A stretch of 64,000 bases of DNA from Scyliorhinus canicula (GCF_902713615.1 NC_052157.1:61530146-61594145), one strand, 5' to 3'; counted from the first letter of the stretch, positions 1-27,985 are shown. Program-made: numbers and translations. The notes: generated from the letters alone by a model not told the origin.

Positions 1-54
1 AAGGCAGCTTTAAGAGCACTCCATGCTGCCACCACTGAGCAAAGGCAAAGCACA

Positions 55-1172
55 GTGGATCATGCGAAATGTAGAAAGCAGATTGCGCAGCTGCAATCCC
101 TGCTTTCTGTACAGAATGGGTTCCAAGAGACATTTGGAACCCAATTAGATGAAGAAAATGCCCCAGATTGGCAGGAATTAAGCGAAACCATGCACGTTAT
201 GTTCAGGGAACATGTCCGCCAGCAGCGCAACAGAAAAGGAAAGCGCCCCAACCCCCCACAGATCAGATAGCACCCGCACCTATGAACCCAGTCACCACCC
301 AAAGAAAGGCAAGCACAGAAGGCGCACCCGAGATCACCTACACCACCCCCTTAACCGTAACACAACTAAGGGACGCATGTGAGAAAATCACCCTGTTCCT
401 CCCCACTGCAGACCCCCACCAATTTTTCGCAAGAGTGAAACAACAGGCGGCCATGTATGGCCTGGATGAGCGAGAGCAGGTAAAGCTCACAGTGTTGAGT
501 TTAGACTCATCGATTATAGCAGCCCTCCCCGACCCACAGAACGTTGGAGGAGGCACATTAGAGGAGATGCATACATCTATTTTAGACACGACAGGGTACA
601 ACAGAGGAGACCCAGTCGAAGGCCTAAATAATTGTAGGCAGAAGAGGACAGAGCATCCCACAGCATTCGCAGGAAGGCTGTAGATTTATTTCACTGCCGT
701 TTTTGGCAATTTAGACCAAGCTCATTTAACCCACGATAATATGGTTAAATGGACCCGCACCATAATCTCCCATGCCACAGATGCAGAACAGAATGTCTGC
801 AGCAGTTATGACCCCTCAGAAGAGGCCCATAATGAAAAATGGGTTTCGAAAAGATTGTCCCGTGCTTGGGAACAATCCATCCAAGGCAAGGTTAAAGTTA
901 AGACCCCAGAAGAAGCTCAGGCTGCAGCAGATATACAGGCAGTAAGAGCACACCAAAACCCCGCATGGGTAAATGAAGGAAAGAACAGCCCCCCACAGAA
1001 GTCGCAGGAATGTTACAACTGCGGACATTTAGGACATTTTGCTAGGGAATACAACGCCCCACAGAGATCTCAGAGAGGCCAGCAGACAGGCACTCTGACC
1101 AGGAACAAAGCAAAGCCAATCCATAGTATAGGGATGCAGTCAGGACAGACCAATGTGGACGGAATGGACTGA
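55..1172 (+). pseudogene. gag: gag, disrupted, with one degenerate CCHC zinc knuckle
   Basis: ORFs 55-270, 168-683 and 741-1172. The knuckle CYNCGHLGHFAREY has its last Cys changed to Tyr. Ends in TGA in the same frame as pol. Confidence 0.8.
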
Positions 1173-4100
1173 CGGTGTTCGGGCTCCCCCACTTGGGTCT
1201 GTGACACCCCCTGGGACTGATCCGGAAGACCGGTGGTCACAGCAAAAATTAGAGGGAAGCCCATCGAATTACTTTGGGACACAGGAGGGTCCCGCACTAC
1301 CATTAATTCCTCCACTACACCACAAGCAGACACGTGGCCCACTACAGCTTCAATTACACTCAGCGGATTTACAGGTCACTCACAGCAGGGACACATTACA
1401 GCCCCTGTATCAATTCAGCTAGGGAACATCTCCACCAGACACCCCGTGGTGTTAGTTAATCTGCCCCGCACAGCAAAACACATACTGGGTATTGACTTCA
1501 TGAATGCCCACGGCCTGTCGTTCGATCCAGTAAATCAGTGTGTCTGGCGAATGGCAAAATCTGACAGAGCACCCGCAACTCTCACAGTAGGAGAGTACGC
1601 AAATAGGATTAGCGCTGTAGGCGACTATTGTTTTGACCCAACCACAGTTAGCACGGAAAAATAGGTTAGGGCAGTTTTGAACAGACACAGGACAGCATTT
1701 GCCAGTCACCGGCACGACTGCGGCAGAATGACTGGACAAGTTCAAGTTACTGGACCTGACCCGAGACCACAGAGACAGTACCGATTTCCCCTAGAAGCAG
1801 AGGGAGAAATTGGAAAGGTTATAGAGAGCTTATTAGAGCAGGGTGTACTTAGGACAGTAGCCTCAACTAATAATGCACCTATTTGGCCAGCGAGGAAGCC
1901 TGACGGATCATGGCGTCTGACCATAGATTATCGGGAACTCAACAAAGTAACCCCAGCAGTAGCCCCCACGGTAGCAACAAGTCCCGAGACCATGCTCAAA
2001 CAGGGACTCCACTCCAAATATTTCACGGTATTGGACATTAGCAACGGCTTCTGGTCAATCCCATTGGCAAAGGCGTGCCAGTACAAATTTGCCTTCACAT
2101 TTAAAGGACAGCAGTATACGTGGACATGCCTCCCACAAGGATTCCACAATTCCCCCTCCATTTGCCACCGACAGCTGGCAAATGGACTAGCAAAATTTTC
2201 CCGACCCGAATGTCTGGTACAGTATGTGGACGACCTATTACTGCAGACAGACACCAAGGCAAAGCACATCACGCTTCTGTCCAAACTCCTGGAACTATTG
2301 CAAAGTATTGGATGTAAAGTTAACCCCAGAAAGGCCCAAATATTGGAGAATCAGGTGATGTATTTGGGTACAGTCATCACGCACGGCAAATGAGAGATCG
2401 AATTCGAAAGAATTGACTCGATCATCAGATTGCCCCTTCCCCAGAATGTTTCAGCCCTCCGGTCGTTTTTAGGACTGGTTGGGTATTGTCGGAACCATAT
2501 CGATGGTTTTGCGACCAAGGCAGCCCCACTTTCAGACCTCCTTAAGAAAGGAGCCCCTTGGGAATGGCTTCCGCAGCATACAGAGGCTGTGGAAGAGTTA
2601 AAGAAAGCCCTCAGCGCAGCATCCGTGCTACAAGTTCCAGACCCACTCTCCCCCTATGCAATAGAGGTAGCTAGCACCGATCTGACCCTCTCGGCCGTGC
2701 TCCTTCAGGAATGGCACGAGCAACTACGACCAGAGGCTTATGCCTCCAGACTTTTAGACCCCGTAAAACAGGGATTTTCAGCCTGCGAGAGGCACCTACT
2801 AGCAGTATTTTGGGCAGTTCGGTACTTTTTGTACATTACTGGACTCAATCCCATCACCATTTTGACCGAACACACCCCCAGACAGTTACTTTTAGACGGT
2901 CGACTAAAGGACGGTTCAGTGAGCCAGATAAGAGCTGCTAGGTGGACACTACTGTTACAAGGATGGGACATAACAGTTAAACGGACCAGGACACACACAT
3001 TTTTAGCGGACAACCTACAGTATCTAGGACAACCCCATGAATGCGAGATAGTAGCACCCCTACACAACACAGGACCATTCATTGCCAAGACGCCCCCCAG
3101 GAAGATAGTGAATTCAAGCCAGAGCACCCAGTACACAGACACGTGTTCCCCCTTAAAGATATATTTGGACGGTTCATCCACAGTTTTAGATGGAGAACGC
3201 ATCACTGGATGTGGGATTTATGTGGAAGATGCGCAGGGACGCGCTTTAGAGGAGATATCTCTAAAATTACCAGGTCACTTAGGCGCGCAGGCAGCAGAGC
3301 TTGCGGCCATTGAATATATAGTGGACCACCCAGATTCGTTCCCCAGCCCAGCAGACATATATTCTGACAGTTTATATGTATGCAACAGCCTCACAGACTT
3401 TCTACCGCTGTGGAGGACAAGAGGTTTTGTCTCCGCGGACGGGAAGCCCCTTCCATCAGCCCCATTACTCCGCCATATCCTAGAGAAGGCAAAGGATAGG
3501 ACGTATGGCATTATCAAAGTTAGAAGCCACCATCGGTCATCCCCCCTGGAAATGTAAAAGCCGACGCACTGGCTAAAGCAGGTTCCAGGCGAGGTCATTT
3601 TTGGACACCCCCAGCTAGCGCACCAGCTAGCGCCCCTGTGAGTGCAGTTCAGGTCTCACAGACAGAAATAGAAGATTTAGTACAGGCACAGAAGCAGGAC
3701 GAAAATCTCCGGGAGATTTTAAAAGGAAACTTTGTGGCCCGTTCGATAAATTCAAACACGCTTTGACCACACATGAGGGTGTGATCATAAAAGACAAATT
3801 GTATGTGGTTCCTGAAAAGGACAGGAATCAAATGATTGCCTTATTCCATGATGGTCAGGGACACCAAGGGATCGACCGTACCACAACACACCTTAGACAA
3901 CTCTGTTGGTGGCCCAACTTAAGACAAGGTGTTACCCACTATATCGAGAATTGTTTAATTTGTGCACAGAATAACCCGGAGAGGTATTCAAAGAAGGCAC
4001 AACTCAGCCACACTCGCCCCGTTAATGGCCCCTGGACAAACCTCCAGATCGATTTTATAGGTCCATTGCCCCTTGCAGGAATGGCTATAAATATGTTCTG

Positions 4101-5603
4101 GTGGTCATAGATACCTTTACCAAATGGGTAGAGGCATTCCCTTCCCGCACCAACACAGCAAAGACAACTGCAAAGATCCTGACCCACCACATCTTTACGA
4201 GATGGGGACTCCCCAGAAGTATAGAATCAGATCAGGGATCTCATTTTACAGGACGGGTCATGAAGAACGTCCTGACCATATTCGGAATCAAACAGAACTT
4301 CCACATTGTGTATCACCCCCAGTCAAGCGGGATAGTGGAACGCATGAATCGGACTCTAAAATCGACCCTTAGAAAAATGGTACAGGAGAACAATTCGACT
4401 TGGGATTCAGTGCTCCCATTCGCTCTAATGTTCATAAGAAATACTGTTTCATCATCTACAGGTTTCACCCCACACACACTCATGACCGGACGCCCTATGA
4501 AAGGATCAGAATTCCTTTTAGGACTCTACACGACCAGCCCAGAAGTGACAGCCCTCACACACGAGAAAGCAGTTAAACAACTAGTTGAGACTGTAAGGTC
4601 TGCTCAGTTAGCAGCCGCAGTAAAATTGGGTAAAAGGAGGAAACAGAGCAAGGCCTGTTTCAACAAAAATGTCCACACCACAGAATTTCAGGTTGGGCAA
4701 CAAGTGATATTATCCATATATAACCCTAGCATGTTTTTGGCACCAAAAGTTTCCGGCCCGTACTCAATTTCGGACAAAATCAGCCCCTCAGTATATCGGA
4801 TAAAGTACCCCAACGGTAAGACTGCGTGGTTCCATATAAACCAGCTAAAGGCTTATGGAACACAGTCAAACCACTCACACCATGTCCTGCTAGATGCAGC
4901 AGAACACCTCGCCCCGCCCACAAGAGACACATTTCCACCCTCCCCCTCACAGACCAGTTCCTCATCGGACTCGACCTCGACTCCGCCCACTGACTTTAGG
5001 ACACGCCCCGGAACGCCCACAAGCTGCCACAGCAGAGACAGTGACAGTGACTGTGAGACTGAGGACAGCCACAGCACTCCACCCAACAGCCACCACTTCA
5101 GCGACTTCGACCCCAACTCCAGTGACCCCATGGAGATCACTTACATTAAAAATCCAGATCCACACCCAAACCCACCACCCAACACTGAAATGAAATGAAA
5201 ATGAAAATCGCTTATTGTCACGAGTAGGCTTCAATGAAGATACTGTGAAAAGCCCCTAGTCGCCACATTCCGGCGCCTGTCCGGGGAGGCTGGTACGGGA
5301 ATCGAACTGTGCTGCTGGCCTGCTTGGTCTGCTTTAAAAGCCAGCGATTTAGCTGAGTGAGCTAAACCAGCCCCTGACGACCCCGACAACGCTCCTTCAA
5401 TTTTAGACCCCACGATTTGGCACAGGGACAATTCTTGGAGACTTGTCCGCAATGACGAGAGTGACCCCCGGTCACACAATGCATAAATTACATGCCTGAT
5501 CCATACAAGGGTATGGGATCTGGGAGAAGAGGATGACTTGATGTCTGACTCCCGACACGGCAACCCCTTTGCGACCCTGTTCGCAGAGAATGAAGAGAAG
5601 TGA
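1173..5603 (+). pseudogene. pol: pol polyprotein: aspartic protease, RT, tether, RNase H, integrase with long C-terminal extension
   Basis: Protease LLWDTGGS. RT LPQGFHNSP and YVDD. Tether RSFLGLVGY...YASRLL...CERHLLAV. RNase H IYLDGSS...AQAAELAA...IYSDS. Integrase H-H-CxxC, QIDFIGP, ESDQGSHF, GIVERMN, GPY. After removing the SINE at 5187-5374 the frame continues to TGA at 5601-5603. Confidence 0.92.
5187..5374 (-). mobile_element. Short tRNA-derived SINE inserted in the integrase tail
   Basis: Minus-strand head ggggctggtttagctca...gttcgattccc (A/B boxes) and a (cattt)n tail. A near-identical copy lies at about 22682-22855. Confidence 0.85.
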
Positions 5604-5770: not shown

Positions 5771-6182
5771 GGGGCAGCACGGTAGCATGGTGGTTAGCAT
5801 AAATGCTTCACAGCTCCTTGGTCCCAGGTTCGATTCCCGGCTGGGTCACTGTCTGTGTGGAGTCTGCACGTCCTCCCCGTGTGTGCGTGGGTTTCTTCCG
5901 GGTGCTCTGGTTTCCTCCCACAGTCCAAAGATGTGCGGGTTAGGTGGATTGGCCATGCTAAATTGCCCGTAGTGTCCTAAAAAGTAAGGTTGGGTGGGGT
6001 GGGGTGGGGGGGGGGGGGGGTGGGGGGGGGGGGGTGGGGGGGGGGGGGGGGGGTTGTTGGGTTACGGGTATAGGGTGGATACGTGGGTTTGAATAGGGTG
6101 ATCATTGCTCGGCACAATATCGAGGGCCGAAGGGCCTCTTCTGTGCTGTACTGTTTTATGTTCTATGTTCTATGTTCTATGT
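5771..6182 (+). mobile_element. V-SINE (HE1-like) with CR1-type 3' tail
   Basis: tRNA-like head, V-SINE core tgtgtggagtctgcac...ggtttcctcccacagtccaaag, and (ttctatg)n tail. Sister copies at 10647-11002, 42295-42660 and 31770-31955 (3' half). Confidence 0.9.
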
Positions 6183-6876
6183 TAGTTTGTCCGCCGATAT
6201 TTCTGAGAACTTGACTCAGCTGAAATGTCTGGAGCCCAGCTCAACGTTTCACCAGGAGCATCTTGGCTCCCCTTTTTTTTAGGTGCCCCTCTATTCTGGG
6301 AATAGAGGCTGCAATTCCACAATGACTATATTCTTGCCCGTTCATTTCAGGTTGCTCAGGCAGTGGAGAAACGGCATTGAGGACCCACCCTGTCTGAGGA
6401 CCACCCCTTTGGTCAGCTAAGCTCGGGTACAGCACAGCAACCCCTACCCGGAGATCCCATACAACTCTTTCCCGTCGCGGCCCAAACGCAACTGATTCGA
6501 CCTTTCTTATTTCTAAAGCTTGGTTTCATTTTGTTTAAGGTAGCCTTCGGCCGCCACTCCATATGCTATTTACATCCAGGAACATTTTGGGATGGTAAAT
6601 TGCAACACTCTGCGAGACGGCTCGCACTGGTTTAGTAGATAAGTATACGTCTGGTCCTAAATCCGTTTTTGAAAAAAAAATGAGGGAGTCACATGGAGGT
6701 GACCATCATAAAGGGAAAATTGGAACAAGAGGACAGATATACTTAAAGTCAAGATATTAAGCTGAACACTAACAGATAATACGCTTGATCCCTTAGCTTT
6801 CGGACGTTCGCGAGAGGAACCGAAGCAACAGCACAGCAAGATCCCAGGAAGGAAGAGCAGAGAAGAGACAGATAAG

Positions 6877-7233
6877 ATGAAGAGCACTCCAATTGCTATG
6901 TTTTTAGCTATTGTGGCATCTGTGTGGTTGCGCGTGGACGCGGACCCCCTTTCCCACAGTACAACGTTTGCTAACTTCTCCCAAACCCAGACCACCCCCA
7001 GCCCAGTCAATGGTAACAGTACCCCGACCTGGTGTACCAGATTTCTGACATGGTACTCCTTGTCGTATGTCATAGAATCACTTTTGGTGATTGCAGTTCT
7101 CTGTATTATAGTCCAAACCCTCAGGATGAGGAAATGGAGAAGGAGAGCCCACCGCTCTCGTGCCTCAACAGTGTACAGAGTACAATCACCCATTTTCAGA
7201 TTCCACCAATCCCCCCAACCCCTTGATGTGTAA
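6877..7233 (+). CDS. 118-aa putative type I membrane glycoprotein (accessory ORF of the retrovirus-like element)
   Basis: Signal-peptide-like MKSTPIAMFLAIVASVWLRVDA, S/T-rich ectodomain with NFS and NST sequons, hydrophobic YVIESLLVIAVLCIIV, polybasic RMRKWRRRAHRSR. AATAAA follows immediately after the stop. Confidence 0.65.
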   Translation: MKSTPIAMFLAIVASVWLRVDADPLSHSTTFANFSQTQTTPSPVNGNSTPTWCTRFLTWYSLSYVIESLLVIAVLCIIVQTLRMRKWRRRAHRSRASTVYRVQSPIFRFHQSPQPLDV

Positions 7234-7409
7234 TAAAGGATTTAATTTTGATATGATCTGTAAATAAAGACTTTGCGGATGTATTATAATGTTCTGAGTT
7301 CGACTGCCGAGTCAGAAATGAAATGTAATGATGCTGCTGTGTGAATGATTAAGGGATTAGAATGTTGTAGAATGTTTAAATATGAGATGAGAGTAGTTTA
7401 TTGAGATAG

Positions 7410-10400
7410 TTAAAATGTCCACGTCCAGCATTTCATCTGCCAGTGATTGTTGTGGCGGTCGTGGGTACGTCCTTGTTTCTTTGCACAGAAAGTTTTTAAG
7501 CTGCAGGTACCTGAATTAGTTACCACCAGTTAGGTGGAATCTTTCTGTCAGCTCATCCAGCGTTGTTATTCTACCGTCAGTTTGCAGATCCCTAACTGTC
7601 AGCATCCCCCCATCCTGCCTCCACCTTTCGAAGGGGGCATCTGTGAGCACTGCCATGACCCTGTGGTTGTTGAAGATGGGGGCCTTATCGGACATTTTGG
7701 TTACGCCAAATTGTTGTCGCAGTTGATTTTACGACTGGAATTTTGCCACAATCTTTGGGCTGGTTGATTGCTTCTTGGGTGGAGATGGGAGTTCCACCGT
7801 GGCTAGGGCCTGGAGGAAGCTCCTCCTCCATGAGCACCCACTCAACTTCCGGCTCCTTTATCCACCCCTTTATTCTTTCTGCTGTCGCTGCCCAGAGATT
7901 GTATCTTAGATTTGGGAGGACTAGTTCCCCATGGATTTTTATCTCAGTAGAGCCTTCTTTGGGATCCTTGCATTCTTCCTCCCCCCCACCACCCCTGGCT
8001 TGCCTCCACACGAACACCATAATTAGTTTGTCCTGTGAGTTGAAAAAAGCCTTGGGGATTTTTATCGGGATGGATCTAATGGATCTAAATGGGAAGAGGT
8101 AGATTGGCAGCACATTCATTTTTATCATCTGCACCCTCCCCGCTCGGGAGAATGGGAGTGTGTTTCACCTCTGCAGGCCCTTTTTAACTTTCTCTGTCAG
8201 ACTGGTCAGGTTCTATTTATGAACTCCCGTCCAGTCTTGAGCGAATTGAATCCCCAGGTAGCAGAATTTATGCCAGGTCCGTTTGAATGGCAATCCCACC
8301 AGCTCTGCCCCTCCTCTTGCAGGCTTACTGGGAAGATCTCGCTTTTGCTCATGTTGAGCTTGTCACCCAAGAAGGGTCCAAATTCTTTCAAGAGCGCAAT
8401 GATTCCTTCCATGCTGCTTTGAGGGTCCGTTATGTAATAATCTTTATTGTCACAAATAGACTTACATTAACACTGCAATGAAGGTACTGTGAAAAGCCCC
8501 TAGTCGCCACATTCCGGTGCCTGTAGAGGAGCAGGCCATCCGCATAGAGCAAGACTCTCTGCTCTCTGCCTCCTCTTCAGATCACCTTCCAATTTTTTGC
8601 CATGTTAAGGAATGGGTTAAGAGACATTCCAATTAAATGTCTCATTTATGTTAAGTATCCAATAATTGACACTGATATGTAAACAGCTTCAGGTGGCCTT
8701 TGAGGCATGTGATGTGGTCACAAAGCTTTTGTACAGAGTTGTGTTAAAGGAAAATAAAGGTGTTTGTGAGAAGGAGCAGAACTTTTGACTCTTTATACAA
8801 CAGCAGCTAAACGGCTAACATGCCACTCTGAATGCAATCGCTAATGGCTCTATCACAAATGCAAACAGCAGCAGGGATAGCAGGTATCCCTGTCTCGTGC
8901 CCTTGTGCAGCTGGAGATACTTCGAGCTGGTGGTGTTTGTTCGAATGCTCGCCATGAGGGCGTTATACAGGAGTTTTACTCAGGCGATGAATCCTGTTCC
9001 GAGCCCGAACCGCTTCATCTCGAAGGGCTTTTCTGCTTCCTGGGAGACGATCACCTCAGGTGTTCTCTCCCCGGATGGGGTCATGATCCCGTTTCACCTC
9101 GTGGAGAGCAGGTGAAAGTCCATCTGTAGTTTTTTTCTTTCCGCCAGGAGCTCTACGGTCAGAGCCTCGGAGTATCGCCAGTCCACCTCCGGTATGGAGT
9201 CAACTCGCTGTCACCTGGCCACCCTCTCTTTCCTGTCTCTTCTTGCTTTAAAAGCGATAATTTATCCCCTGATCAAAGCCTTCAGCGCCTCCAAGAACGT
9301 GAAGGGTGAGACCTCCCCGTTCTGGTTGTTCTTTATATATTCATTTGTGGCCTGTGATATTTTCTCACAAAAAGCTTTGTCAGCCAGTAAGCCTGTGTCC
9401 AACCTCCATGTGAGGTGTTGGGCACGGCCTGTCTCCAATCTCACATCCATGGAATGTGGAGTGTGCTCTGAGATTACGATTATGGAGTAGGCCGCCCTAA
9501 CCAGCCCTGGAAGCACCGATTTCCCCACCATAAAGAAGTCGATCCTTGAGTAAACATTATGCACTTGGGAGAAGAAGGAGAACTCTTTCTCCTCTGGGTG
9601 GGTGAATCGCCATGGGTCCACTGCCCCTATCTGCTCCATAAAAAGGCCAAGTTCCTTTGCCATGCTGGAGGTCTTTCCCATTTTGGGGTTCGACCTGTCC
9701 GTCCGTGGGTCCTGTATGCAGTTAAAACTCGCACCATGATCAGTTGGTGCATGTCTGTGTCGGGGATTTCTGTCATGGTCTTCTTTATAAACTCCGTGTC
9801 GTCCCAGTTGGGAGAATTAATGAGGACTACCGGTGCCCCGTCTAGGATACCGATGACCATGACGTACCGTCCCCCTGGGTCCGTTACCGCCTTTGCCACT
9901 GTGTACATCGTCCACTTATTAATTAGAGTGGTTACCCCACTGGCCCTCGTTCCGTAGCAGGAATGGTAGATCTGTCCCACCCAGCCCTTCCTTACCCAGT
10001 CGGTCCTTCTCCCTCAGGTGTTTCTCTTGGAGGAAGACTATGTCGGCTCTCATATTCCTCAGGTAGGTGAAGACTCTGGATCTTTTCACTGGGCCGTTAA
10101 GCCCCCTGACATTCCAGGTGAATATCCTGATGGGGGTTTTTTGTCCTTCCGCTCCTGTGGGATTACCCAGATTCGCTCAGTGGATGTGCCCCTGCACTCC
10201 AGGCTTTCCCTTTGTTAGGGGACCATCCAAAATGGCCGTGGTCACTGTTCTCCCCATGTGGTCGGGCCCCTGCAGTCCGGTGTCTCCTTTTGCCCAGGGA
10301 CCCTTCTAAGTGGTTGCTTAGCCCACGTGTGGCCTGCTGCAGCCAGTCTGCCATTTTTGATCTGTCCTTTCACCTTGCTGGGGGCACACCGCAGCCACTG

Positions 10401-12168
10401 TCCTTCACATGAGTCCTGGTGCTAGCTGTCTCGGTAGTGAGGTGGCTCCCCTCCCAGGAGTTACTGTGCTTGCCTCCCTCGCCCGTTGTCTGAAATTTTG
10501 CTCACTCTGTCCCCTCTCTTACACTGTACTTGTCCGGACGTCACTCACCTTTCCCTTTTTCGCTACCTTCGTTTTTCAGAACGAGGCCATGTTCTCCCAC
10601 GTAAAGCGGTCTCGTTGGTGCTGGTTTGATGTTGGTTACAGATTGTAGGGGGGTAGCAGGGTAGCATGGTGGTTAGCATAAATGCTTCACAGCTCCAGGG
10701 TCCCAGGTTCGATTCCCGGCTGGGTCACTGTCTGTGTGGAGTCTGCACGTCCTCCCCCTGTGTGCGTGGGTTTCCTCTGGGTGCTCCGGTTTCCTCCCAC
10801 AGTCCAAAGATGTGCGGGTTAGGTGGATTGGCCATGCTAAATTGCCCGTAGTGTCCTAATAAAAGTAAGGTTAAGGGGGGGGTTGTTGGGTTACGGGTAT
10901 AGGGTGGATACGTGGGTTTGAGTAGGGTGATCATGGCTCGGCACAACATTGAGGGCCGAAGGGCCTGTACTGTGCTGTACTGTTCTATGTTCTATGTTCT
11001 ATGAACGAGAGTTTCTTTTCTCTCCCCCCAATCTGCTGTCAGCACATTGCCGAGTTACCATCTAGCTCTGTTGGTTCCTCATCGTTTCCCCTGTTGCTGC
11101 TTTTCCAGCCCGCACTATACGACAAACTTATCCACCTCAGCGGGGACTGTAAAAAGTGTTCTTTGCCTTTGTATGTGACCCAGAGCTTGGCTGGGTACAG
11201 CATACCAAATCTTACATCACTCTTGTACAGCACGGCCTTTGCCTTGTTGAATTTAGCCCAGCGCTTGATTAGGTCAGCTCCAATATCCTGGTATATCCGG
11301 ATCCGGATCTGATGTCCTTCCCAGCTGCAGATTTTAGACCGTCTGACCCAGCACAGGATTCTCTCCCAGACTTAGCACCGGTGCATTTTCTCTATAATCG
11401 CCCTTGGCTGGTCCCCGGCTTTGGGCTTTTAGTTTGTGTGCCCTGTATATTTCTGGTGGGTTGGGAAAGGTGTCCCTTCCCACCAGGTTGCCAGCATTTG
11501 GGCCACATACTCTTTCGGCTCCCTACCTTCGATCACCTCCGTAGGCCCACGATTCGTAGGTTTGCCATCTCGACCGGTTCTCTTGGTCCTCGACCTTTCC
11601 TGTTGGGCTGTCCTGTGTCGCGATCAGCCTCGCCACCTCTTTTTGTAGGGCGACGATTCAGCCGTTCTGGTCCGTTGCGGCCCTTTCCAGTTCTGTGATC
11701 GTCACCTCCTGGGCCTCAAATCTCTTAACTGCTTCGTCCAAGGCGAGCTGCATGTGCGCCAGGGCTTTGGCTCCCGCGTCCTTCACCGCTGCCTGGATGT
11801 CCGATTTTGTCTCGTCCCTGTGCTCCCTTAGTGCACTCGAGAGGAACGCCGTCCAGCCATTCCCCACCCCGGTGAGGGAGGGCTTCGTGCGCGACTGGTC
11901 AGGCCCTCTCGTTCCGGTGAAGTTTGGGTTTCGCTGCCTCGTGCGCCGATCAGTTTGTCCGTTCGCTTCTGCTCCAGGCTCGTCTGACTCCTGGTCCCTG
12001 CTCGACCCCTGGATTGAGTTTTGCCCGACATCCATTCTTTTTTCTTTTGTCCCCTGTTGTCCTGTTCAAGCCGAGGGGATGAATTGCTCGGTTTTTAGGC
12101 ATTTTTCCAGGTTCACGGGAGGAGAGTCTCCTGATGTGCAAATTCTCAGCATATGGTCATCATCGGAA
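7410..12168 (-). mobile_element. L1/Tx1-clade LINE, decayed, internally deleted and 3'-truncated
   Basis: 5' end gacttccgatgatg at about 12168. ORF1 fragments (coiled coil 11658-12035; FGMLYPAKLWVTYKG 11039-11233). Endonuclease (9262-9980, YSRIDFF) and RT remnants (7685-8412). SINE insertions at 10647-11002 and about 8425-8523. Confidence 0.88.
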
Positions 12169-12373
12169 GTCTTGAAGCAAATTTCTGTTTATTCACTGCA
12201 GGATGTTGGATAAGATGTCCAATAATTAAAACAGTGGAGGAGTCAAGAGAGGTTGGGGGGGGGGGGGGGTAGAACTGGGTGTCGTTCAGTGTCAGTGGCG
12301 TGCAGAGGGGGGGGCCGACGGTGCATTGGCCCCGGGCATCCATTGGATGGGGGCATCCAATCAGAGAAGGAAA

Positions 12374-12553
12374 AAAAAAAAATTCTTTTTAAAAAAAAAA
12401 ATTTTTTTTTTTACATTTTTTTTTTAAATTTAGATTACCCAATTATTGCAAAATGTGCAAACTTCACACGCACATTGACCCAGAGCTGGGATCGAACCTG
12501 GGACCTCAGTTCCGTGAGGCGGTTGTGCTAACCACTAGGCCACCGTGCTGCCC
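12374..12553 (-). mobile_element. Internally deleted V-SINE inserted in the hAT left subterminal region
   Basis: 12-bp TSD cagagaaggaaa at 12362-12373 and 12554-12565; tRNA-like head at the right end. Confidence 0.85.
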
Positions 12554-13184
12554 CAGAGAAGGAAATAAGATAGTAATTTTAAAATTTCAGCGGTGATAAA
12601 TCAGTTTTTGGAGGCTCACCACACTGCAGAGGCAGTTGTTAGCCCTTTATTCCTTTAACATGGTGTACCCTTTCTGTCTAGAGAAAATGGTCCTTCTCCC
12701 CATCCCCCCCACGCGCATGCGCATGATGTACGTGGTGCAACCATCAAAAGCAACAAGCAGACGTGGCTGTTCGTTTCTGCATTTCCTCGAGTCATAACTC
12801 GTCTTTTCTTCAGCTTTTTGTGCATCTAGATTAGTTCTTTTACCTACTCAGGTCAGTGAATAGCTCTAGAACAGGTGCAACTACGGTTTTTATAGGTTTT
12901 TTGGCGATATTTAATTAAATATTTACGTGGGATGTAGTAAGAGTGAAGCCTGGATGATCAGAGGACTGCTATGGCATTTAATCTCGGAATAGGAGACATT
13001 TATTCCTTAACATGCTAATATTCGAATACAGATACCACTAATTTGCAAGTCTATCATATAAATTGCACAAAATTATCAGTGGAGAATCAGTGTGAAATAA
13101 TTTGATACGAAGGAACAAAGAAATGAAATATGGTTTATCCGTCTGCAACTGACCGATTGTTTACCATTTTCTTCCCATTTTCTC

Positions 13185-15746
13185 ATGCGTCTTACGGTTT
13201 TTGAGATAGAAAATGAAATGTTACGAGTATTTTGTGTACAACCGAGTGGAGCACAGAACAGGGAAAAAAAGAGGGCCAGAGTCGAAGAAGAGTCCCATCA
13301 AAGAGGGGCATTAGATGCATGGATAAAAAGAAGTAAAGAAGAAGTAGGAGAACCTGGAGAAGTAAAAGATGATGTGGGTGCAGAGAAGGATTTTTCTGAT
13401 ACGGATTCAGCTCGGTCAGAACATAATACTCTCTCTCCTCAGTCTCGTTGTCAGGATGATGATCCATGTGAAGAAAATAAAGAAGATATTTGCATATTTT
13501 TGCAAAGAAGCAATTTTGGCTGTTTGAAGAAACCGATTCCAGATCATTTGAAGATGACAATATTACAACATGGCCCTGAAAGATATCAGAATAAAAGTGG
13601 TCCATTTGCTGAGAAGGATGGGAGATCATTTTTCAAACAGTGGTTTGATAAAGTTTCCACAAACAGAGAAATTGTGGAGAGAAAATGGTTGTTATACTCT
13701 CCATATCGGAAAGCATGCTACTGTTTTGTTTGCTTTTTGTTTTCAAAGGAGCATTTGTCGTCTGTGTCAAACTTTGGAAAGGAAGACGGTTTCTCCACTT
13801 GGAGAAAATTAAATCCAACAATACCTGACCGTGAGAAAAGCCCTTCTCATAGAGCTCACATGAGGGAATACCTGAACCTTGTAGTTCGACTCCATCATTC
13901 AACTACGATAGATGCTGAACTTCAACAGCAAATGTCTGCTGAAAAGAAAAGATGGAAAGCTATAACTGAACGGATTGTCGAGGTTATATCCTTTCTGGCA
14001 AAGCAGAATCTGGCCTATCGTGGACATCGAGGAGAAGGAATATCTGGGTTATCAGAGCCAGGGGAGACAGTCAGTGAAAATACAGGAAACTTTCTAGCAA
14101 CAATCAGACTTTTGGCCAAATATGATGACATCTTAGCAAAACACTTGCAGAGAGGGAAAGAGAAACCAAAAAGTGTCACCTACTTGTCCAACAGAATTCA
14201 AAACGAAATAATCAATCTTCTTGGTGAAACTGTCAAGAAAAATATAATTTCTGAAATTAAGGACGCAAAATATTTTAGCATAATGCTGGATTCAACTCCA
14301 GATATTGCCCATGAAGATCAGGTTTCTGAAATTCTGCGTTACGTTCATATTGATGAAAACAGAAAAGTAGAAATAAAGGAGACATTTCTGGGATTTTTTC
14401 AAGTCAACAAGAAAGATGCAGTCAGCCTGGTAAATAAAATTCAGGAAAAATTGGAAGAAGACAAAATTTCCATGAATGACTGTTGTGGTCAAGCATATGA
14501 TAACGCAGCAGTTATGGCTGGAGTGAGAGGAGGTGTTCAACAAAAAATTCTTGAAGTTAACCCAAAAGCTGTGTTTGTGAACTGCGAGAACCACAGCCTC
14601 AATTTGTCCTGTGTCCATGCAAGTGAGGTGCAACCTGTTGTTGTTACATTTTTTGGCATTCTAGAAAAACTCTTTACTTTTTTTTCTTCATCTACTTCTC
14701 GTTGGGAAGTGTTAAAATCATTTGTCACTCGGACTGTGAAAAGACAGTGTGACACAAGATGGAGTTCCAGCCATGATGCTGTGCAAGTAATCCACGAAGA
14801 GTGTGACAACGTTATTGCAAGCCTTCAACACCTGCTGGAAGGAGAATTTTCAAGGGAAACTAAATCTGATGCAGGATCGCTCCTGAACTCTATTCAACAG
14901 TTCCCGTTTATAGCTTTATTAAATTTTTGGTACTCAGTTTTATCATCAGTGGATAAAGTCTCAAAACGTTTGCAGGATCCGAAAATGGGGTTCCATGAAG
15001 CTTCTTGTGATCTGAGAGGACTTATTCATATCTTGAATTTGAAGAATGACGAAATTATCCACAATGCAATAGATTTAGCCAATGAATATTGTCAAAATTG
15101 GGGAATACCAATTGCACGAACAAGGAAAAGAAGAATAATGCCTGGAGAGTCAGCAAGAGATAGTGGACTGACGGCACAAGAAGAAATGAATAGAGTAATG
15201 GTAGAGATAGTGAACAGATTAAAAACTGAAATTGAAGACCGCAGTGTCCGTCTTCAAAGACTCAGTGACCGATTTTCTTTTCTTCTGAACTTGAATTCAG
15301 GAGTGATTGAAGATGAACAAGAAAGAGAGAAATTAAAAAAGGAATGTTCAGACTTTGCAAATTATTATGACAATGATGTGGTTGCAATTCAGTTATATGA
15401 CAAAATTATTGATTTTGTGATGCTCCTTCGAGCTGGAGGGAATAGAGTTCCCCCTGATCCTAAAGATGCTCTGGAGTCTTTACTGCAGTATGGGAGGGAT
15501 GTCTTTCCGACGCTGTGTGTTTCATACAGATTACTGCTTACAATTGCATTTTCAGTCGCAAGCTGTGAAAGGTCATTTTCAAAACTGAAATTAATAAAAA
15601 CATATCTGAGGTCTTCTATGTCACAGGAGCGACTGACCAACCTGGCTTTAATAAGCATTGAAAAAGAATTTCTCACAGCTGATGTAAAAAGTGAAGTAGT
15701 TCAGGTGTTTTGTGACAGAAGGTATCATTTGGGGAAAAGAACTTAA
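13185..15746 (+). CDS. hAT transposase (ZMYM1-like: TTF zinc finger, DDE core, C-terminal dimerisation domain), 853 aa, uninterrupted
   Basis: CYCFVCFLF...H zinc finger, MLDSTPD, AYDNAAVM, CxxH (CENH), TRW, and SCERSFSKLKLIKTYLRSSMSQERLTNLALISIE. The true start codon is uncertain. Confidence 0.93.
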   Translation: MRLTVFEIENEMLRVFCVQPSGAQNREKKRARVEEESHQRGALDAWIKRSKEEVGEPGEVKDDVGAEKDFSDTDSARSEHNTLSPQSRCQDDDPCEENKEDICIFLQRSNFGCLKKPIPDHLKMTILQHGPERYQNKSGPFAEKDGRSFFKQWFDKVSTNREIVERKWLLYSPYRKACYCFVCFLFSKEHLSSVSNFGKEDGFSTWRKLNPTIPDREKSPSHRAHMREYLNLVVRLHHSTTIDAELQQQMSAEKKRWKAITERIVEVISFLAKQNLAYRGHRGEGISGLSEPGETVSENTGNFLATIRLLAKYDDILAKHLQRGKEKPKSVTYLSNRIQNEIINLLGETVKKNIISEIKDAKYFSIMLDSTPDIAHEDQVSEILRYVHIDENRKVEIKETFLGFFQVNKKDAVSLVNKIQEKLEEDKISMNDCCGQAYDNAAVMAGVRGGVQQKILEVNPKAVFVNCENHSLNLSCVHASEVQPVVVTFFGILEKLFTFFSSSTSRWEVLKSFVTRTVKRQCDTRWSSSHDAVQVIHEECDNVIASLQHLLEGEFSRETKSDAGSLLNSIQQFPFIALLNFWYSVLSSVDKVSKRLQDPKMGFHEASCDLRGLIHILNLKNDEIIHNAIDLANEYCQNWGIPIARTRKRRIMPGESARDSGLTAQEEMNRVMVEIVNRLKTEIEDRSVRLQRLSDRFSFLLNLNSGVIEDEQEREKLKKECSDFANYYDNDVVAIQLYDKIIDFVMLLRAGGNRVPPDPKDALESLLQYGRDVFPTLCVSYRLLLTIAFSVASCERSFSKLKLIKTYLRSSMSQERLTNLALISIEKEFLTADVKSEVVQVFCDRRYHLGKRT

Positions 15747-16069
15747 TAAATTTGATTGATTTATATTAAAATCGAATAAAGCGTTTATTTCATGTTTCAT
15801 CTGTGTTTATATATTCAAAATGTTTTCCTTTCTCATAATATTTCTCAGTATATTAGGCCTTATACTTGAGTCTTTGGGGCATACAATCAAGATTTGCCCC
15901 GGGCATCACCAGACCTCTGCACGCCACTGTTCAGTGTACATGTGAAAACTAACACTGTTCAGATGATGTTGCAAAGCCATTACAAGTAATTCTCTATCTA
16001 GGATTAGACAGCAATGGAACCAGGTTAGAGCAGCCCCACCCAGCTGGATAACATTGTACAGAAGCATTG

Positions 16070-21459: not shown

Positions 21460-23002
21460 GCAATGGCAGTGACAATGTTAGGCAATCGGCTTGAAGACTG
21501 GTCTGGTGAACTGCAACCTGAGGCAACCCAACGTTAAAAAAATACTGAAGTTTGAGATGGACGGACTGAGGGCCTCCCACCAGCTTCAGATGTCCAGTAA
21601 CGTAAATGAGAACAGGCGGCTGTTCAAATAGCAATTCGAACTTTGTTTCGGCTGTCAGACTGCAGGCCCAGCCTGATGAAAGGCTAATGAACTGGCAAAT
21701 CTGGCCGTTTCACTCCAATCACTCAAACTTATAACTCGTTTGTCTTTGAACGTGACGGGTGTCAGAAAAATTCTGATGAAGTTCCAAAGCGCTTTGAGCA
21801 GCATTGTCCCCCCCCCCCCCCCCCCCCCCCCAAGAAGATTGAAACTTTTGAAAGCTACATGATTTATATGCGTCCCCAGAGACCTGGCGAATCATTTGAC
21901 AGTTTTGTCACAGACTTGAGGCTGAACGCCCAGTCATGCAACTTCGGGGACTTAAAATTTGCCTTAATCCACAACCAAATTGTCTTTAGTTTGCTTGATG
22001 ATAAGCATAAGGTGATATTATTGCGGGAGGAAGCTTTGGTATTGGAAAAGGCAGTGAAGATTTGCCAGGCGAGCGAGATTGCTGCACAAAGAGTCGGCGC
22101 ACTCTGCTCAAAAGGTTTTGGTGTCAACGTGGATGAAGATGCCAGTGTCATTCGTGCTGTGACGCACATCATAAAGAAACATGGTCTCAGTCCGGTGGCC
22201 ATTTTAAGCAGCCGATCGGAGCCGCCGCCATCTTGTGCCAAAAATGTGGCACTCGACATCCTCCACGGCAATGTCTGGCCTATGGAAAAATTTGTTCCAG
22301 GTGCGGTGAGACTTTGCTGATCGGTCAGGGGTCAAGATAGACTTCGGCACAAGACTCTAGAGACCTTATATCTTTGCAAATTAGTGGGGCAGCACGGTAG
22401 CACAGTGGGTAGCACTGTTGCTTCACAGCGCTAGGGTCCCAGGTTCGATTCCCGGCTTGGGTCACTGTCTGTGTGGAGTCTGCACTTTTTCCCCGTGTCT
22501 GCGTGGGTTTCCTTCAGGTGCTCCGGTTTCCTCCCCAAGTTCCGAAAAATGTGCTGTTCAGTGAATTGGCCATTCTGAATTCTCCCTCAGTGTACCTGAA
22601 CAGATGCCGGAATGTGGTGACTCGGGGCCATTCACAGTAAATTCATTGCAGTGTCAGCCTACTTGTGGCAATAAAGATTATGAAAATCGTTTATTGTCAC
22701 AAGTAGGCTTTAAATGAAGTTACTGTGAAAAGCCCCTAGTCGCCACATTCCGGCACCTGTCCGGGAAGGCTGGTACGGGAATTGAACCGTGCTGCTGGCC
22801 TGCCTTGGTCTGCTTTAAAAGCCAGTGATTTAGCCCAGTGTGCTAAACCAGCACATATTATGGTGTTCTCAGTGGCAGGTATAAAGTACACAATACTCTT
22901 TCATTTTGTAGATTAGGATGTGGACTTAGTCATTGGTATAAAATCGTGTGAATCCTTGAATATAATCGAGCGGATAAATCTCCTCGGAGACAGCTGGTCA
23001 CC
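21460..23002 (+). pseudogene. Gypsy gag and protease remnants, with two SINEs at about 22385-22680 (+) and 22682-22855 (-)
   Basis: MRPQRPGESFDSFVTDLRLNAQSCNFGDL...LEKAVKICQASE (gag). VIGIKSCESLNIIERIN (protease C-terminus) just before the satellite. Confidence 0.8.
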
Positions 23003-26000
23003 TGAGCACAGTGAATCACTCTGTACACAGTGCATTACGGTGTGCACAGTGCATTACGGTGTGCACAGTGAATGACTGTGTGCACAGTGCATCACGGTGA
23101 GCACAGTGAATCACTCTGTACACAGTGCATTACGGTGTGCACAGTGAATCACTGTGTGCACAGTGCATTACGGTGAGCACAGTGAATCACTCTGTACACA
23201 GTGCATTACGGTGTGCACAGTGAATGACTGTGTGCACAGTGCATCACGGTGAGCACAGTGAATCACTCTGCACAGTGCATTACGGTGAGCACAGTGAATG
23301 ACTGTGTGCACAGTGCATTACGGTGTGCACAGTGCATTACGGTGTGCACAGTGCATTACCGTGTGCACAGTGAATCACTGTGTGCACAGTGCATTACGGT
23401 GAGCACAGTGAATCACTGTGTGCACAGTGCATTACGGTGTGCACAGTGAATGACTGTGTGCACAGTGCATTACGGTGTGCACAGTGAATCACTGTGTGCA
23501 CAGTGCATTACGGTGTGCACAGTGCATTACGGTGAGCACAGTGAATCACTGTGTGCACAGTGCATTACGGTGTGCACAGTGAATGACTGTGTGCACAGTG
23601 CATTACGGTGTGCACAGTGCATTACGGTGTGCATAGTGAATGACTGTGTGCACAGTGCATTACGGTGTGCACAGTGAATCACTGTGTGCACAGTGAATCA
23701 CTGTGTGCACAGTGCATTACGGTGTGCACAGTCACAGTGCATTAAGGTGTTAACAGTGAATCACTGTATGCACAGTGCATTACGGTGTGCACAGTGAATC
23801 ACTGTGTGCACAGTGCATTACGGTGTGCACAGTGAATCACTGTGTGCACAGTGCATTACGGTGTGCACAGTGAATGACTGTGTGCACAGTGCATTACGGT
23901 GTGCACAGTGAATCACTGTGTGCACAGTGCATTACGGTGTGCACAGTGAATCACTGTGTGCACAGTGCATTACGGTGTGCACAGTGAATGACTGTGTGCA
24001 CAGTGCATTACGGTGTGCACAGTGAATCACTGTGTGCACAGTGCATTACGGTGTGCACAGTGAATCACTGTGTGCACAGTGCATTACGGTGTGCACAGTG
24101 AATGACTGTGTGCACAGTGCATTACGGTGTGCACAGTGAATCACTGTGTGCACAGTGCATTACGGTGTGCACAGTGAATCACTGTATGCACAGTGCATTA
24201 CGGTGTGCACAGTGAATCACTGTGTGCACAGTGCATTACGGTGTGCACAGTGAATCACTCTGTGCACAGTGCATTACGGTGAGCACAGTGAATCACTGTG
24301 TGCACAGTGTATTACGGTGTGCACAGTGAATCACTGTGTGCACAGTGCATCACGGTGAGCACAGTGAATCACTCTGCACAGTGCATTACGGTGAGCACAG
24401 TGAATGACTGTGTGCACAGTGCATTACGGTGTGCACAGTGCATTACGGTGTGCACAGTGCATTACCGTGTGCACAGTGAATCACTGTGTGCACAGTGCAT
24501 TACGGTGAGCACAGTGAATCACTGTGTGCACAGTGCATTACGGTGTGCACAGTGAATGACTGTGTGCACAGTGCATTACGGTGTGCACAGTGAATCACTG
24601 TGTGCACAGTGCATTACGGTGTGCACAGTGCATTACGGTGAGCACAGTGAATCACTGTGTGCACAGTGCATTACGGTGTGCACAGTGAATGACTGTGTGC
24701 ACAGTGCATTACGGTGTGCACAGTGCATTACGGTGTGCATAGTGAATGACTGTGTGCACAGTGCATTACGGTGTGCACAGTGAATCACTGTGTGCACAGT
24801 GAATCACTGTGTGCACAGTGCATTACGGTGTGCACAGTCACAGTGCATTAAGGTGTTAACAGTGAATCACTGTATGCACAGTGCATTACGGTGTGCACAG
24901 TGAATCACTGTGTGCACAGTGCATTACGGTGTGCACAGTGAATCACTGTGTGCACAGTGCATTACGGTGTGCACAGTGAATGACTGTGTGCACAGTGCAT
25001 TACGGTGTGCACAGTGAATCACTGTGTGCACAGTGCATTACGGTGTGCACAGTGAATCACTGTGTGCACAGTGCATTACGGTGTGCACAGTGAATGACTG
25101 TGTGCACAGTGCATTACGGTGTGCACAGTGAATGACTGTGTGCACAGTGCATTACGGTGTGCACAGTGAATCACTGTATGCACAGTGCATTACGGTGTGC
25201 ACAGTGAATCACTGTGTGCACAGTGCATTACGGTGTGCACAGTGAATCACTCTGTGCACAGTGCATTACGGTGAGCACAGTGAATCACTGTGTGCACAGT
25301 GTATTACGGTGTGCACAGTGAATCACTGTGTGCACAGTGCATTACGGTGTGCACAGTGAATCACTGTGTGCACAGTGCATTACGGTGTGCACAGTGCATT
25401 ACGGTGTGCACAGTGAATCACTGTGTGCACAGTGCATTACGGTGTGCACAGTGAATGACTGTGTGCACAGTGCATCACGGTGTGCACAGTGCATTACGGT
25501 GTGCACAGTGAATCACTGTGTGCACAGTGCATTACGGTGTGCACAGTGAATGACTGTGTGCACAGTGCATTACGGTGAGCACAGTGAATGACTGTGTGCA
25601 CAGTGCATTACGGTGTGCACAGTGCATTACGGTGTGCACAGTGCATTACCGTGTGCACAGTGAATCACTGTGTGCACAGTGCATTACGGTGAGCACAGTG
25701 AATCACTGTGTGCACAGTGCATTACGGTGTGCACAGTGAATGACTGTGTGCACAGTGCATTACGGTGTGCACAGTGAATCACTGTGTGCACAGTGCATTA
25801 CGGTGTGCACAGTGCATTACGGTGAGCACAGTGAATCACTGTGTGCACAGTGCATTACGGTGTGCACAGTGAATGACTGTGTGCACAGTGCATTACGGTG
25901 TGCACAGTGCATTACGGTGTGCATAGTGAATGACTGTGTGCACAGTGCATTACGGTGTGCACAGTGAATCACTGTGTGCACAGTGAATCACTGTGTGCAC

Positions 26001-27985
26001 AGTGCATTACGGTGTGCACAGTCACAGTGCATTAAGGTGTTAACAGTGAATCACTGTATGCACAGTGCATTACGGTGTGCACAGTGAATCACTGTGTGCA
26101 CAGTGCATTACGGTGTGCACAGTGAATCACTGTGTGCACAGTGCATTACGGTGTGCACAGTGAATGACTGTGTGCACAGTGCATTACGGTGTGCACAGTG
26201 AATCACTGTGTGCACAGTGCATTACGGTGTGCACAGTGAATCACTGTGTGCACAGTGCATTACGGTGTGCACAGTGAATGACTGTGTGCACAGTGCATTA
26301 CGGTGTGCACAGTGAATCACTGTGTGCACAGTGCATTACGGTGTGCACAGTGAATCACTGTATGCACAGTGCATTACGGTGTGCACAGTGAATCACTGTG
26401 TGCACAGTGCATTACGGTGTGCACAGTGAATCACTCTGTGCACAGTGCATTACGGTGAGCACAGTGAATCACTGTGTGCACAGTGTATTACGGTGTGCAC
26501 AGTGAATCACTGTGTGCACAGTGCATCACGGTGAGCACAGTGAATCACTCTGCACAGTGCATTACGGTGAGCACAGTGAATGACTGTGTGCACAGTGCAT
26601 TACGGTGTGCACAGTGCATTACGGTGTGCACAGTGCATTACCGTGTGCACAGTGAATCACTGTGTGCACAGTGCATTACGGTGAGCACAGTGAATCACTG
26701 TGTGCACAGTGCATTACGGTGTGCACAGTGAATGACTGTGTGCACAGTGCATTACGGTGTGCACAGTGAATCACTGTGTGCACAGTGCATTACGGTGTGC
26801 ACAGTGCATTACGGTGAGCACAGTGAATCACTGTGTGCACAGTGCATTACGGTGTGCACAGTGAATGACTGTGTGCACAGTGCATTACGGTGTGCACAGT
26901 GCATTACGGTGTGCATAGTGAATGACTGTGTGCACAGTGCATTACGGTGTGCACAGTGAATCACTGTGTGCACAGTGAATCACTGTGTGCACAGTGCATT
27001 ACGGTGTGCACAGTCACAGTGCATTAAGGTGTTAACAGTGAATCACTGTATGCACAGTGCATTACGGTGTGCACAGTGAATCACTGTGTGCACAGTGCAT
27101 TACGGTGTGCACAGTGAATCACTGTGTGCACAGTGCATTACGGTGTGCACAGTGAATGACTGTGTGCACAGTGCATTACGGTGAGCACAGTGAATCACTG
27201 TGTGCACAGTGCATTACGGTGTGCACAGTGAATCACTGTGTGCACAGTGCATTACGGTGTGCACAGTGAATGACTGTGTGCACAGTGCATTACGGTGTGC
27301 ACAGTGAATCACTGTGTGCACAGTGCATTACGGTGTGCACAGTGAATCACTGTATGCACAGTGCATTACGGTGTGCACAGTGAATCACTGTGTGCACAGT
27401 GCATTACGGTGTGCACAGTGAATCACTCTGTGCACAGTGCATTACGGTGAGCACAGTGAATCACTGTGTGCACAGTGTATTACGGTGTGCACAGTGAATC
27501 ACTGTGTGCACAGTGCATTACGGTGTGCACAGTGAATCACTGTGTGCACAGTGCATTACGGTGTGCACAGTGAATGACTGTGTGCACAGTGCATTACGGT
27601 GTGCACAGTGCATTACGGTGTGCACAGTGCATTACGGTGTGCACAGTGAATCACTGTGTGCACAGTGCATTACGGTGTGCACAGTGAATCACTGTGTGCA
27701 CAGTGCATTACGGTGTGCACAGTGAATCACTGTGTGCACAGTGCATTACGGTGTGCACAGTGCATTACGGTGTGCACAGTGAATCACTGTGTGCACAGTG
27801 CATTACGGTGTGCACAGTGAATCACTGTGTGCACAGTGCATTACGGTGTGCACAGTGCATTACGGTGTGCACAGTGAATCACGGTGTGCACAGTGCATTA
27901 CGGTGAGCACAGTGAATCACTGTGTGCACAGTGCATTACGGTGTGCACAGTGAATCACTGTGTGCACAGTGCATTACGGTGTGCA
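23003..27985. repeat. About 5-kb satellite of two related 19-mers (gtgcacagtgaatcactgt / gtgcacagtgcattacggt) with 1.0-1.2 kb higher-order repeats
   Basis: Direct reading. The rare variant gtcacagtgcattaaggtgttaac recurs at 23731, 24837, 26021 and 27013 (spacings 1106, 1184, 992). Confidence 0.97.

Follow-up and report, generated by a model that had tools for sequence, protein, structure and literature searches.

A 64,000-nucleotide stretch of Scyliorhinus canicula DNA (NC_052157.1:61530146-61594145), referred to below as the window, begins inside a decayed retroelement whose polymerase combines a reverse transcriptase (RT) with two successive RNase H domains, which raises the question of where among retroviruses and retrotransposons this element belongs. 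The original prediction, made from the nucleotide sequence only, had described an env-less element of retroviral grade in a probable shark genome and had assigned it to a basal lineage, either loki-like or foamy-like. Our analyses argue for another answer: the element is likely a defective endogenous retrovirus (ERV) of the SnRV-like (snakehead retrovirus-like) or clade Huo grade, which is related to class III and lies inside the canonical Retroviridae, in the genome of a shark. It is mostly ordinary apart from a small membrane-protein open reading frame (ORF) located where env would be. Published work is cited by PubMed Central number or DOI, and statements about it refer to the accessible parts of each source.

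Two RNase H domains and the relatives of the element

The RT carries the predicted LPQG and YVDD motifs (coordinates of all features are given in Table 1). The dual RNase H is real: a Pfam match to the tether, a degenerate Gypsy-type RNase H, is followed by an RNase_H match in one common frame. Alignment with six Gypsy RNase H domains showed that the catalytic residues of the tether are gone (EVAS replaces TDAS, ERHLLA, and TEH replaces TDH), a loss common to the element's relatives, whereas the second domain keeps D, E and D, the last Asp being located in another frame. The degenerate tether and the second catalytic domain of the original prediction were thereby both recovered. Assignment to Ty3/Gypsy (Metaviridae) was rejected, as the RT lies outside Gypsy and a second RNase H is present beyond the dead Gypsy-type one; the element is of retroviral grade, as first proposed.

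Searching with the pro-pol frame yielded 647 matches, the best of which were frog, coelacanth and turtle proteins annotated as 'NYNRIN-like' (36-44% identity) as well as unnamed proteins, and an exhaustive search added further unnamed fragments with 59-76% identity. The nearest named relative is a gene model of Mustelus asterias (P0028), which matches in three segments with 59-65% identity. This match, as far as the gene model can be relied on, places the family in at least one named shark and also supports a shark host. P0028 itself is annotated as a lysophosphatidylcholine symporter that opens with three fragments of the element's family and is probably a mis-prediction.

An alignment query against viral contigs returned 14 loci with SnRV as the best, and a direct search of the viral contigs with the element RT gave no confirmed relative. 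Scanning metagenomes by RT motif retrieved Loki-type, ERV-L/S-like and Gypsy-type loci, with none of the element's group among the matches listed. A search of sequencing runs gave 24 runs, of which 20 contain part of 1200-5150 (best share 0.51) and none is listed as RNA; no conclusion is drawn from these runs. A literature search, mostly without subscription papers and without Repbase, found no description of the family or of the small ORF, and the family is not described in the accessible parts of PMC12690878, PMC10435555, 10.1101/2023.10.17.562709 and 10.1101/2024.03.25.586437. The element is an undescribed shark family within a known, thinly sampled group of early-branching ERVs.

Placement of the reverse transcriptase

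For phylogenetic analysis, 173 RT rows were selected; removal of 56 near-duplicate or partial rows left 117 for a quick tree, and careful trees were calculated from 44, 46 and 40 rows (RT and RT plus tether). The reference loci were drawn from viral and metagenome contigs; foamy viruses were represented by mammalian members, and Odin, fish or shark foamy-like ERVs and CGIN1 were not part of the trees or the reference set. The designations SSSV-like, ERV-L/S-like, beta and Gypsy were assumed or assigned from motifs. WEHV-1 bears its name from NCBI, and SnRV, MuLV, FeLV, REV, Xen-1, EFV, BFV, SFV and lamprey Loki were labelled by eye from a comparison of their RT with rows of the PMC7947760 supplement, the remaining Loki rows by motif.

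In all careful trees the element RT was located inside the canonical Retroviridae (support 100/99, 100/100 and 100/99), with Loki (99/99 and 100/99) and the mammalian foamy viruses (100/100) forming separate clades outside the element's group and Gypsy outside as well. RT identity reached 50-57% with coelacanth and most frog ERVs and 45.7% with SnRV; values were lower for gamma/epsilon (35-38%), foamy (34-37%), Loki (34-39%) and Gypsy elements (30-33%). Among the exogenous references in the set, SnRV has the RT closest to that of the element, the others reaching at most 37.7%, and the stretch from protease (PR) through RT and tether to the second RNase H (RH) is collinear with that of SnRV (372 bits, 33%). 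The element joined SnRV in the quick trees of 117 and 72 rows with values of 92 and 87, respectively, in the Shimodaira-Hasegawa-like approximate likelihood ratio test, and uniting the element's group with SnRV was not rejected by the approximately unbiased (AU) test on RT plus tether (p=0.115). Judged from these comparisons, the element can be placed no more finely than in a grade at the base of the canonical Retroviridae, which also includes SnRV, ERV-L/S and the related aquatic ERVs. This grade has been named SnRV-like or clade Huo (PMC4977317, PMC6001957, PMC8922424), and clade Huo has been reported from all major vertebrate lineages (PMC6001957).

Integrase and the order at the base

The integrase gave a different picture. 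By BLAST, it is 41-43% identical to Loki and 32% to SnRV, and the tether likewise is nearer to Loki (33-40%) than to SnRV (26%). With Gypsy as the root, the integrase trees show Loki as the first branch, followed by the element's group as a grade and then by a clade of SnRV, foamy and gamma/epsilon viruses, which was supported with 97/95 under LG+G4 (36 rows, long-branched beta and ERV-L/S rows left out) and with 99/99 under a mixture model; a 59-row tree that kept the long-branched rows gave the same split (97/96). The element is on the canonical side of Loki (99/97 and 98/96). In AU tests on the integrase, uniting the group with SnRV (p=0.0018) or with foamy viruses (p=0.032) was rejected, and uniting it with Loki was borderline (p=0.050, CGIN1 being outside the sample).

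Several results weigh against a place beside SnRV. The integrase is more similar to Loki, and the integrase AU test rejects SnRV as partner. In two careful trees a clade of frog and coelacanth ERVs and the query (91/94) was recovered with SnRV not resolved beside it, the third gave no resolved order at the base of the canonical retroviruses, and a 13-row SnRV-like set formed one group in only 22% of bootstrap trees. AU tests on RT alone failed to reject a union of Loki with the ten-row group (p=0.062) or of foamy viruses with the element's group (p=0.30), and the latter union was not rejected on RT plus tether either (p=0.084). No significant similarity was detected between the Gag of the element and that of SnRV. 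In addition, the likeness to the elephant-shark ERV CmiERV described below is a reading by eye. Monophyly of the element with SnRV itself is, on these alignments, not established.

These data might also be explained by a distinct, unnamed lineage to which the SnRV-like label would apply only loosely. It would stand as sister group to the remaining canonical retroviruses, or as a grade beneath them, would have retained an ancestral integrase of Loki/CGIN1 type and would be env-less in sharks. The integrase trees and the Loki-like tether speak for it. The base, however, is not resolved by RT or RT plus tether, the excluded SnRV, foamy and gamma/epsilon lineages are long-branched, and an ancestral branch encompassing SnRV has already been proposed (PMC4977317, citing Hayward 2015). 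The RT does not confirm the order, and as the excluded lineages evolve fast, the integrase placement may reflect long-branch attraction. Integrase phylogenies have been called unreliable by the authors of the Loki and Odin studies (PMC7947760, PMC9040795), integrase swaps have been reported (PMC7947760), clade Huo is defined in the literature on RT/Pol, and the accessible part of PMC9447858 contains no integrase phylogeny. We regard a distinct lineage as rather unlikely; it refines the assignment to the SnRV-like grade instead of displacing it. Of the basal lineage originally proposed, the early branching is retained on the integrase trees; a Loki placement of the element is rejected on RT, and the foamy genome organisation is lacking. 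The integrase trees suggest that the Loki-type integrase may be ancestral; if their placement holds, this group would have kept the ancestral retroviral state, in contrast to PMC7947760, where a replacement specific to Loki was proposed.

The integrase and tether similarity, together with the dual RNase H, the lack of env shared with Odin (PMC9040795) and the two AU results for Loki given above, could also indicate the first lokiretrovirus or Odin-like element of cartilaginous fish. This is hardly credible. The RT rows of Loki in the PMC7947760 supplement read CPFGY(S/A)NSP or a close variant, a motif taken from the rows and not from a formal definition, in contrast to LPQGFHNSP in the element, and the AU test rejected query plus Loki on RT (p=0.00025) and group plus Loki on RT plus tether (p=1.7e-5). 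The second RNase H, compared by BLAST scores and alignment, scored 32-39 bits against Loki and 62 against SnRV, and no F-like env was found, either with the env-position frames of reference loci L048 and L072 or in Pfam. Odin, which is outside the sample, would be excluded indirectly, as the RT is on the canonical side of the Loki branch. The original prediction had stated correctly that lokiretroviruses were not listed for cartilaginous fish (0/6 chondrichthyan genomes screened; PMC7947760 supplement), and the element does not extend them to this host group.

Gag, protease and the gag-pol junction

The gag frame from 282 to 1172 matched retrotransposon Gag clusters in the ESM Atlas feature comparison (0.91-0.93), and the helical stretch at 1..270 gave no Pfam match above the cut-off. 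The CCHC knuckle originally described for gag is indeed a Cys-His box and scores above the Pfam zf-CCHC cut-off, but it is not a full CCHC, its fourth ligand being Tyr. Gag and protease share one frame across the UGA stop, and an in-frame UAG is found at the equivalent junction of SnRV. A stable RNA fold 3′ of the UGA was sought and none was found (z=+1.08), and we claim no readthrough element. UGA readthrough as such is not novel; it has been reported or predicted for SSSV, ZFERV and XtERV-S (PMC13517186, PMC8278194).

The Trp before the catalytic Asp (LLWDTG), from which a foamy-like hint had been drawn, is present. It amounts, in the rows compared, to a one-residue resemblance to foamy protease: WDTG occurs in one foamy reference too, and the nine non-foamy relatives with a detectable protease motif (20 rows examined) read L/V/I-D[TS]G. 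The protease frame matched RVP-type families only and gave no Spuma_A9PTase match in Pfam. Further points in favour of a foamy-like ERV related to the shark CmiFLERVs are the best PDB matches, which are foamy Pr125Pol (234 bits vs 213 for MLV, with no SnRV-like chain among the 60 matches listed), the two AU tests that did not reject group plus foamy, and foamy-like pol fragments reported from elephant shark (PMC5512871). Against these stand the query-plus-foamy test on RT (rejected, p=0.013), the rejection on integrase, and published fish foamy-like RT rows, which differ from the element RT by eye. Moreover, spumaviruses start pol separately in another frame and have, as originally stated, no Cys-His boxes in Gag (PMC8278194), whereas the element has such a box and its gag and pol are in frame across the stop. 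The foamy genome organisation is absent, and we consider this relationship very unlikely.

The 3′ region

The search for env extended from position 4900 to the element end. None of 67 long frames taken from 17 reference loci, with gamma, SnRV, foamy and Loki env among them, matched this interval at E<0.05, no immunosuppressive-domain motif was present in it, Pfam gave no match at all above the cut-off in the three plus frames, and no env was found in the 64-kb window. The description as env-less therefore applies to this copy, but it is shown for one copy only, whose 5′ long terminal repeat (LTR) is outside the window and whose 3′ end is cut by a LINE (long interspersed nuclear element). Loss of env is common in ERVs, for example frequent in ERV-L/XtERV-S (PMC8278194), and its lack lowers the case for an infectious virus, not that for retroviral descent.

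The Pol frame continues past the integrase as a long extension, whereas Pol stops 4-27 aa beyond the integrase end motif in the eight relatives that have this motif (12 examined). The element had been taken to span 1..5603. It probably runs on to about 7410 and includes an intact ORF of 118 aa that was missed at first. The transmembrane (TM) segment of this ORF has a peak hydropathy of 2.48, and it is the only ORF of its pattern in the 64-kb window. Of 2000 mononucleotide shuffles of 6183-7410, 35 contained an equally long plus-strand ORF beginning with ATG and none an ORF with such a pattern, by criteria chosen after the ORF had been seen and with the signal peptide called from hydropathy, not by a predictor. 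A word search found no homologues (0/3 candidates), Atlas matches were all below 0.9, and the Pfam match to TMEM156 was below the cut-off; a scan of viral contigs gave one confirmed stretch, but with no locus attached to it. Identity with FAST proteins was dropped, as these are not known to have a signal peptide.

The ORF probably belongs to the element: it is intronless, lies on the pol strand in the position of env and 3′ of acceptor-like sites, it is followed by an AT-rich stretch like the one after the CmiERV env (PMC4422223), and no host homologue was found. Conceivable origins are an env that has suffered an internal deletion, an accessory gene, and a neighbour with no relation to the element. 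The last possibility, a host retrocopy or a second mobile element beside a provirus that lost env and its 3′ end by deletion, would agree with the short interspersed nuclear element (SINE) between ORF and pol, with the TMEM156 match, with weak look-alikes (scores of 0.84-0.87, no more than leads) among single-pass proteins of the host such as TMIE, TMEM213 and glycophorin and with an AT skew of about zero at the ORF vs +0.14 to +0.35 in gag-pol, and linkage to the element is not known from another copy. We consider a neighbour the less likely possibility.

The 130 C-terminal amino acids of the Pyxicephalus gene model P0003, inspected by eye, show the integrase running into a hydrophobic leader and an Ig-like stretch; this is possibly a 3′ gene of the element concerned or a mis-joined host exon.

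Life cycle of the ancestor and significance

According to the layout, the ancestor of this member of the SnRV-like grade would have made Gag and, via readthrough of the in-frame UGA, Gag-Pro-Pol. In its RT, the former Gypsy-type RNase H would have become the tether, and the second RNase H, which keeps catalytic residues, would have cut RNA; integration would have taken place through the DDE integrase. The copy is now dead, with four stops, several frame breaks and two SINE insertions. In the env position, the small type I membrane glycoprotein would most simply be an env remnant or replacement expressed from a spliced RNA. As this copy has no env and carries the membrane ORF in its place, the family may have done without its own envelope and spread by retrotransposition within cells, or it may have used the envelope of a helper.

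A more far-reaching interpretation would be that an elasmobranch family in the earliest-branching canonical group, with Loki-like integrase and tether, has replaced env by a 118-aa signal-peptide/transmembrane glycoprotein that belongs to no family known so far, and spreads with no fusion protein, thus representing a vertebrate intermediate between Loki/Odin and other Retroviridae and a new kind of 3′ gene. We consider this doubtful. If it is true that the membrane ORF is a fixed family gene replacing env, it would be an undescribed type of retroviral 3′ gene.

Decay of the copy and neighbouring features

The copy is inactivated by four internal gag-pol stops (681, 1218, 1662 and 2391) and by frame breaks near the gag 5′ part, at the RNase H end and within the integrase, there ahead of the zinc domain and near the start of the core. 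The LINE remnant that abuts and truncates its 3′ end is presumably L1/Tx1-like; it carries a SINE of its own at about 10650-11003 and lacks its own 3′ end at the junction with the retrovirus. The SINEs of the window were not identifiable from the accessible part of PMC5499810.

Table 1. Features of the element and its immediate surroundings (positions in the window; PBS, primer-binding site)
Feature	Position	Strand	Details
gag start, PBS, 5′ LTR	upstream of window		window begins within gag
gag 5′ part, helical stretch	1..270	+	frame 1, open frame; gag label putative, from position
gag capsid and nucleocapsid region	282..1172	+	frame 3; internal stop 681-683; terminal TGA 1170-1172
Degenerate Cys-His box	1011..1052	+	C-X2-C-X4-H-X4-Y; Tyr as fourth ligand
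gag UGA stop, next base C	1170..1172	+	shares frame with protease; probable readthrough site
Aspartic protease	1173..1661	+	LLWDTG 1269-1286; in-frame stop 1218-1220; Pfam RVP, gag-asp_proteas, Asp_protease_2
RT and thumb	1665..2560	+	LPQGFHNSP 2130-2156; YVDD 2223-2234; in-frame stops 1662-1664, 2391-2393; Pfam RVT_1 E=9e-34
Tether, degenerate Gypsy-type RNase H	2565..3045	+	Pfam RT_RNaseH_2, RT_RNaseH (about 2565-2960); alignment with six Gypsy RNase H domains
Second RNase H	3156..3600	+	D-E-D in frame 3, last Asp in frame 2 (frame break near end); Pfam RNase_H about 3156-3533, E=1.8e-10
Integrase	3800..4860	+	HHCC zinc domain 3847-3963; D 4045-4062; D 4224-4238; E 4329-4346; SH3-like C-terminal domain; Pfam Integrase_H2C2, rve, SH3_Tf2-1
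Pol extension past integrase	4861..5603	+	Ser/Pro/Asp-rich; about 180 codons; SINE-interrupted; last stop 5601-5603
SINE in Pol extension	5189..5373	-	4-bp duplication CTGA at flanks; 92% match to 22680-22852
Second SINE, downstream of pol	5771..6182	+	multi-copy in window; 80-89% matches elsewhere in window
Non-coding stretch	6183..6876	+	two splice-acceptor-like sites, AG 6281-6282 and 6349-6350; function putative
Intact 118-aa ORF, env position	6877..7233	+	signal-peptide-like N-terminus; sequons at residues 33 and 47; TM helix about 60-82; basic tail
AT-rich 3′ stretch	7234..7410	+	AATAAA motifs; candidates, both weak, for polypurine tract (7351-7362) and LTR start (7363); low confidence
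LINE remnant (not part of element)	7411..12170	-	abuts and truncates element 3′ end; match to second copy 57843-58178 begins at 7412; ORF fragments

Further mobile elements are located downstream. A hAT DNA transposon at 12293-15929 (+) looks young; its terminal inverted repeats measure 16 bp, its target duplication 8 bp, and its frame of 881 codons (13101-15743; DUF4371 and Dimer_Tnp_hAT) is uninterrupted. A satellite of about 5 kb built from 19-bp units (130 copies at the reported period of 38 bp) occupies 22900-27985, and a 567-codon open frame at 28270-29970 (+) encodes a non-LTR-type RT (RVT_1 E=2e-34). Open frames at 21691-22317 and 54197-54724 (+) resemble Gag fragments of another LTR-element family, and a weak match to the Mustelus gene model was observed at 21841-21942. 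No tRNA gene was found in the 64-kb window.

Comparison with known systems

SnRV, an unclassified exogenous retrovirus, shares with the element the Gag Cys-His box, the in-frame stop before the protease and the collinear PR-RT-tether-RH order. It differs by its UAG stop, a large env, 3′ accessory ORFs, a divergent integrase (32%) and a Gag that could not be aligned. In addition, a further domain with two H-x-[TS] motifs separates RNase H from integrase in SnRV Pol (locus L001, about 4900-5150); it is absent in the element, and we take it to resemble a 2H phosphoesterase. The 'NYNRIN-like' ERV Pol proteins of frogs, coelacanth and turtle (P0002-P0004, P0007, P0011, P0122) have the same domain order, with 36-44% identity over PR-RH and 49-57% in the RT, but unlike the element they have intact ORFs and no long Pol extension.

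Lokiretroviruses (PMC7947760) share the dual RNase H and the similarity in integrase and tether, and differ in RT clade and motif and by their F-like env. Odin (PMC9040795) shares the dual RNase H and the lack of env, and has been reported only from sea anemones. Class III ERV-L/XtERV-S (PMC8278194) have an in-frame TGA between gag and pol, a tether and frequent env loss in common with the element; unlike it, they carry YIDD, no Cys-His box and a dUTPase after the integrase.

A close counterpart in organisation is the elephant-shark CmiERV lineage I, which Han 2015 placed with SnRV (PMC4422223). Read by eye from the supplement of that paper, CmiERV scaffold 2 resembles the element in several respects: gag has a Cys-His box, a TGA lies in frame ahead of the protease, the RT reads LPQGFHNSP, the tether carries CERHLLA and is followed by a second RNase H, the integrase motifs are similar, and the host is a cartilaginous fish. 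The first 69 residues of the two RTs are about 58% identical by the same reading. The mixture of features that had seemed unusual in the original prediction is already on record in cartilaginous fish, since CmiERV lineage I shows it on this reading. In contrast to the element, CmiERV has LTRs, a gamma-type env with an immunosuppressive-domain-like motif and CX6CC, and a Pol ending right after the integrase; the element, in turn, lacks env, extends Pol well past the integrase and carries the small membrane ORF. The protein of the set nearest to CmiERV (P0282, about 77% over the same 69 residues, by eye) groups with a Xenopus element and not with the query, and it lies within the same grade as the element. 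A described shark ERV of largely the same organisation thus exists at the level of the clade and not of the family, CmiERV and the element representing two different families.

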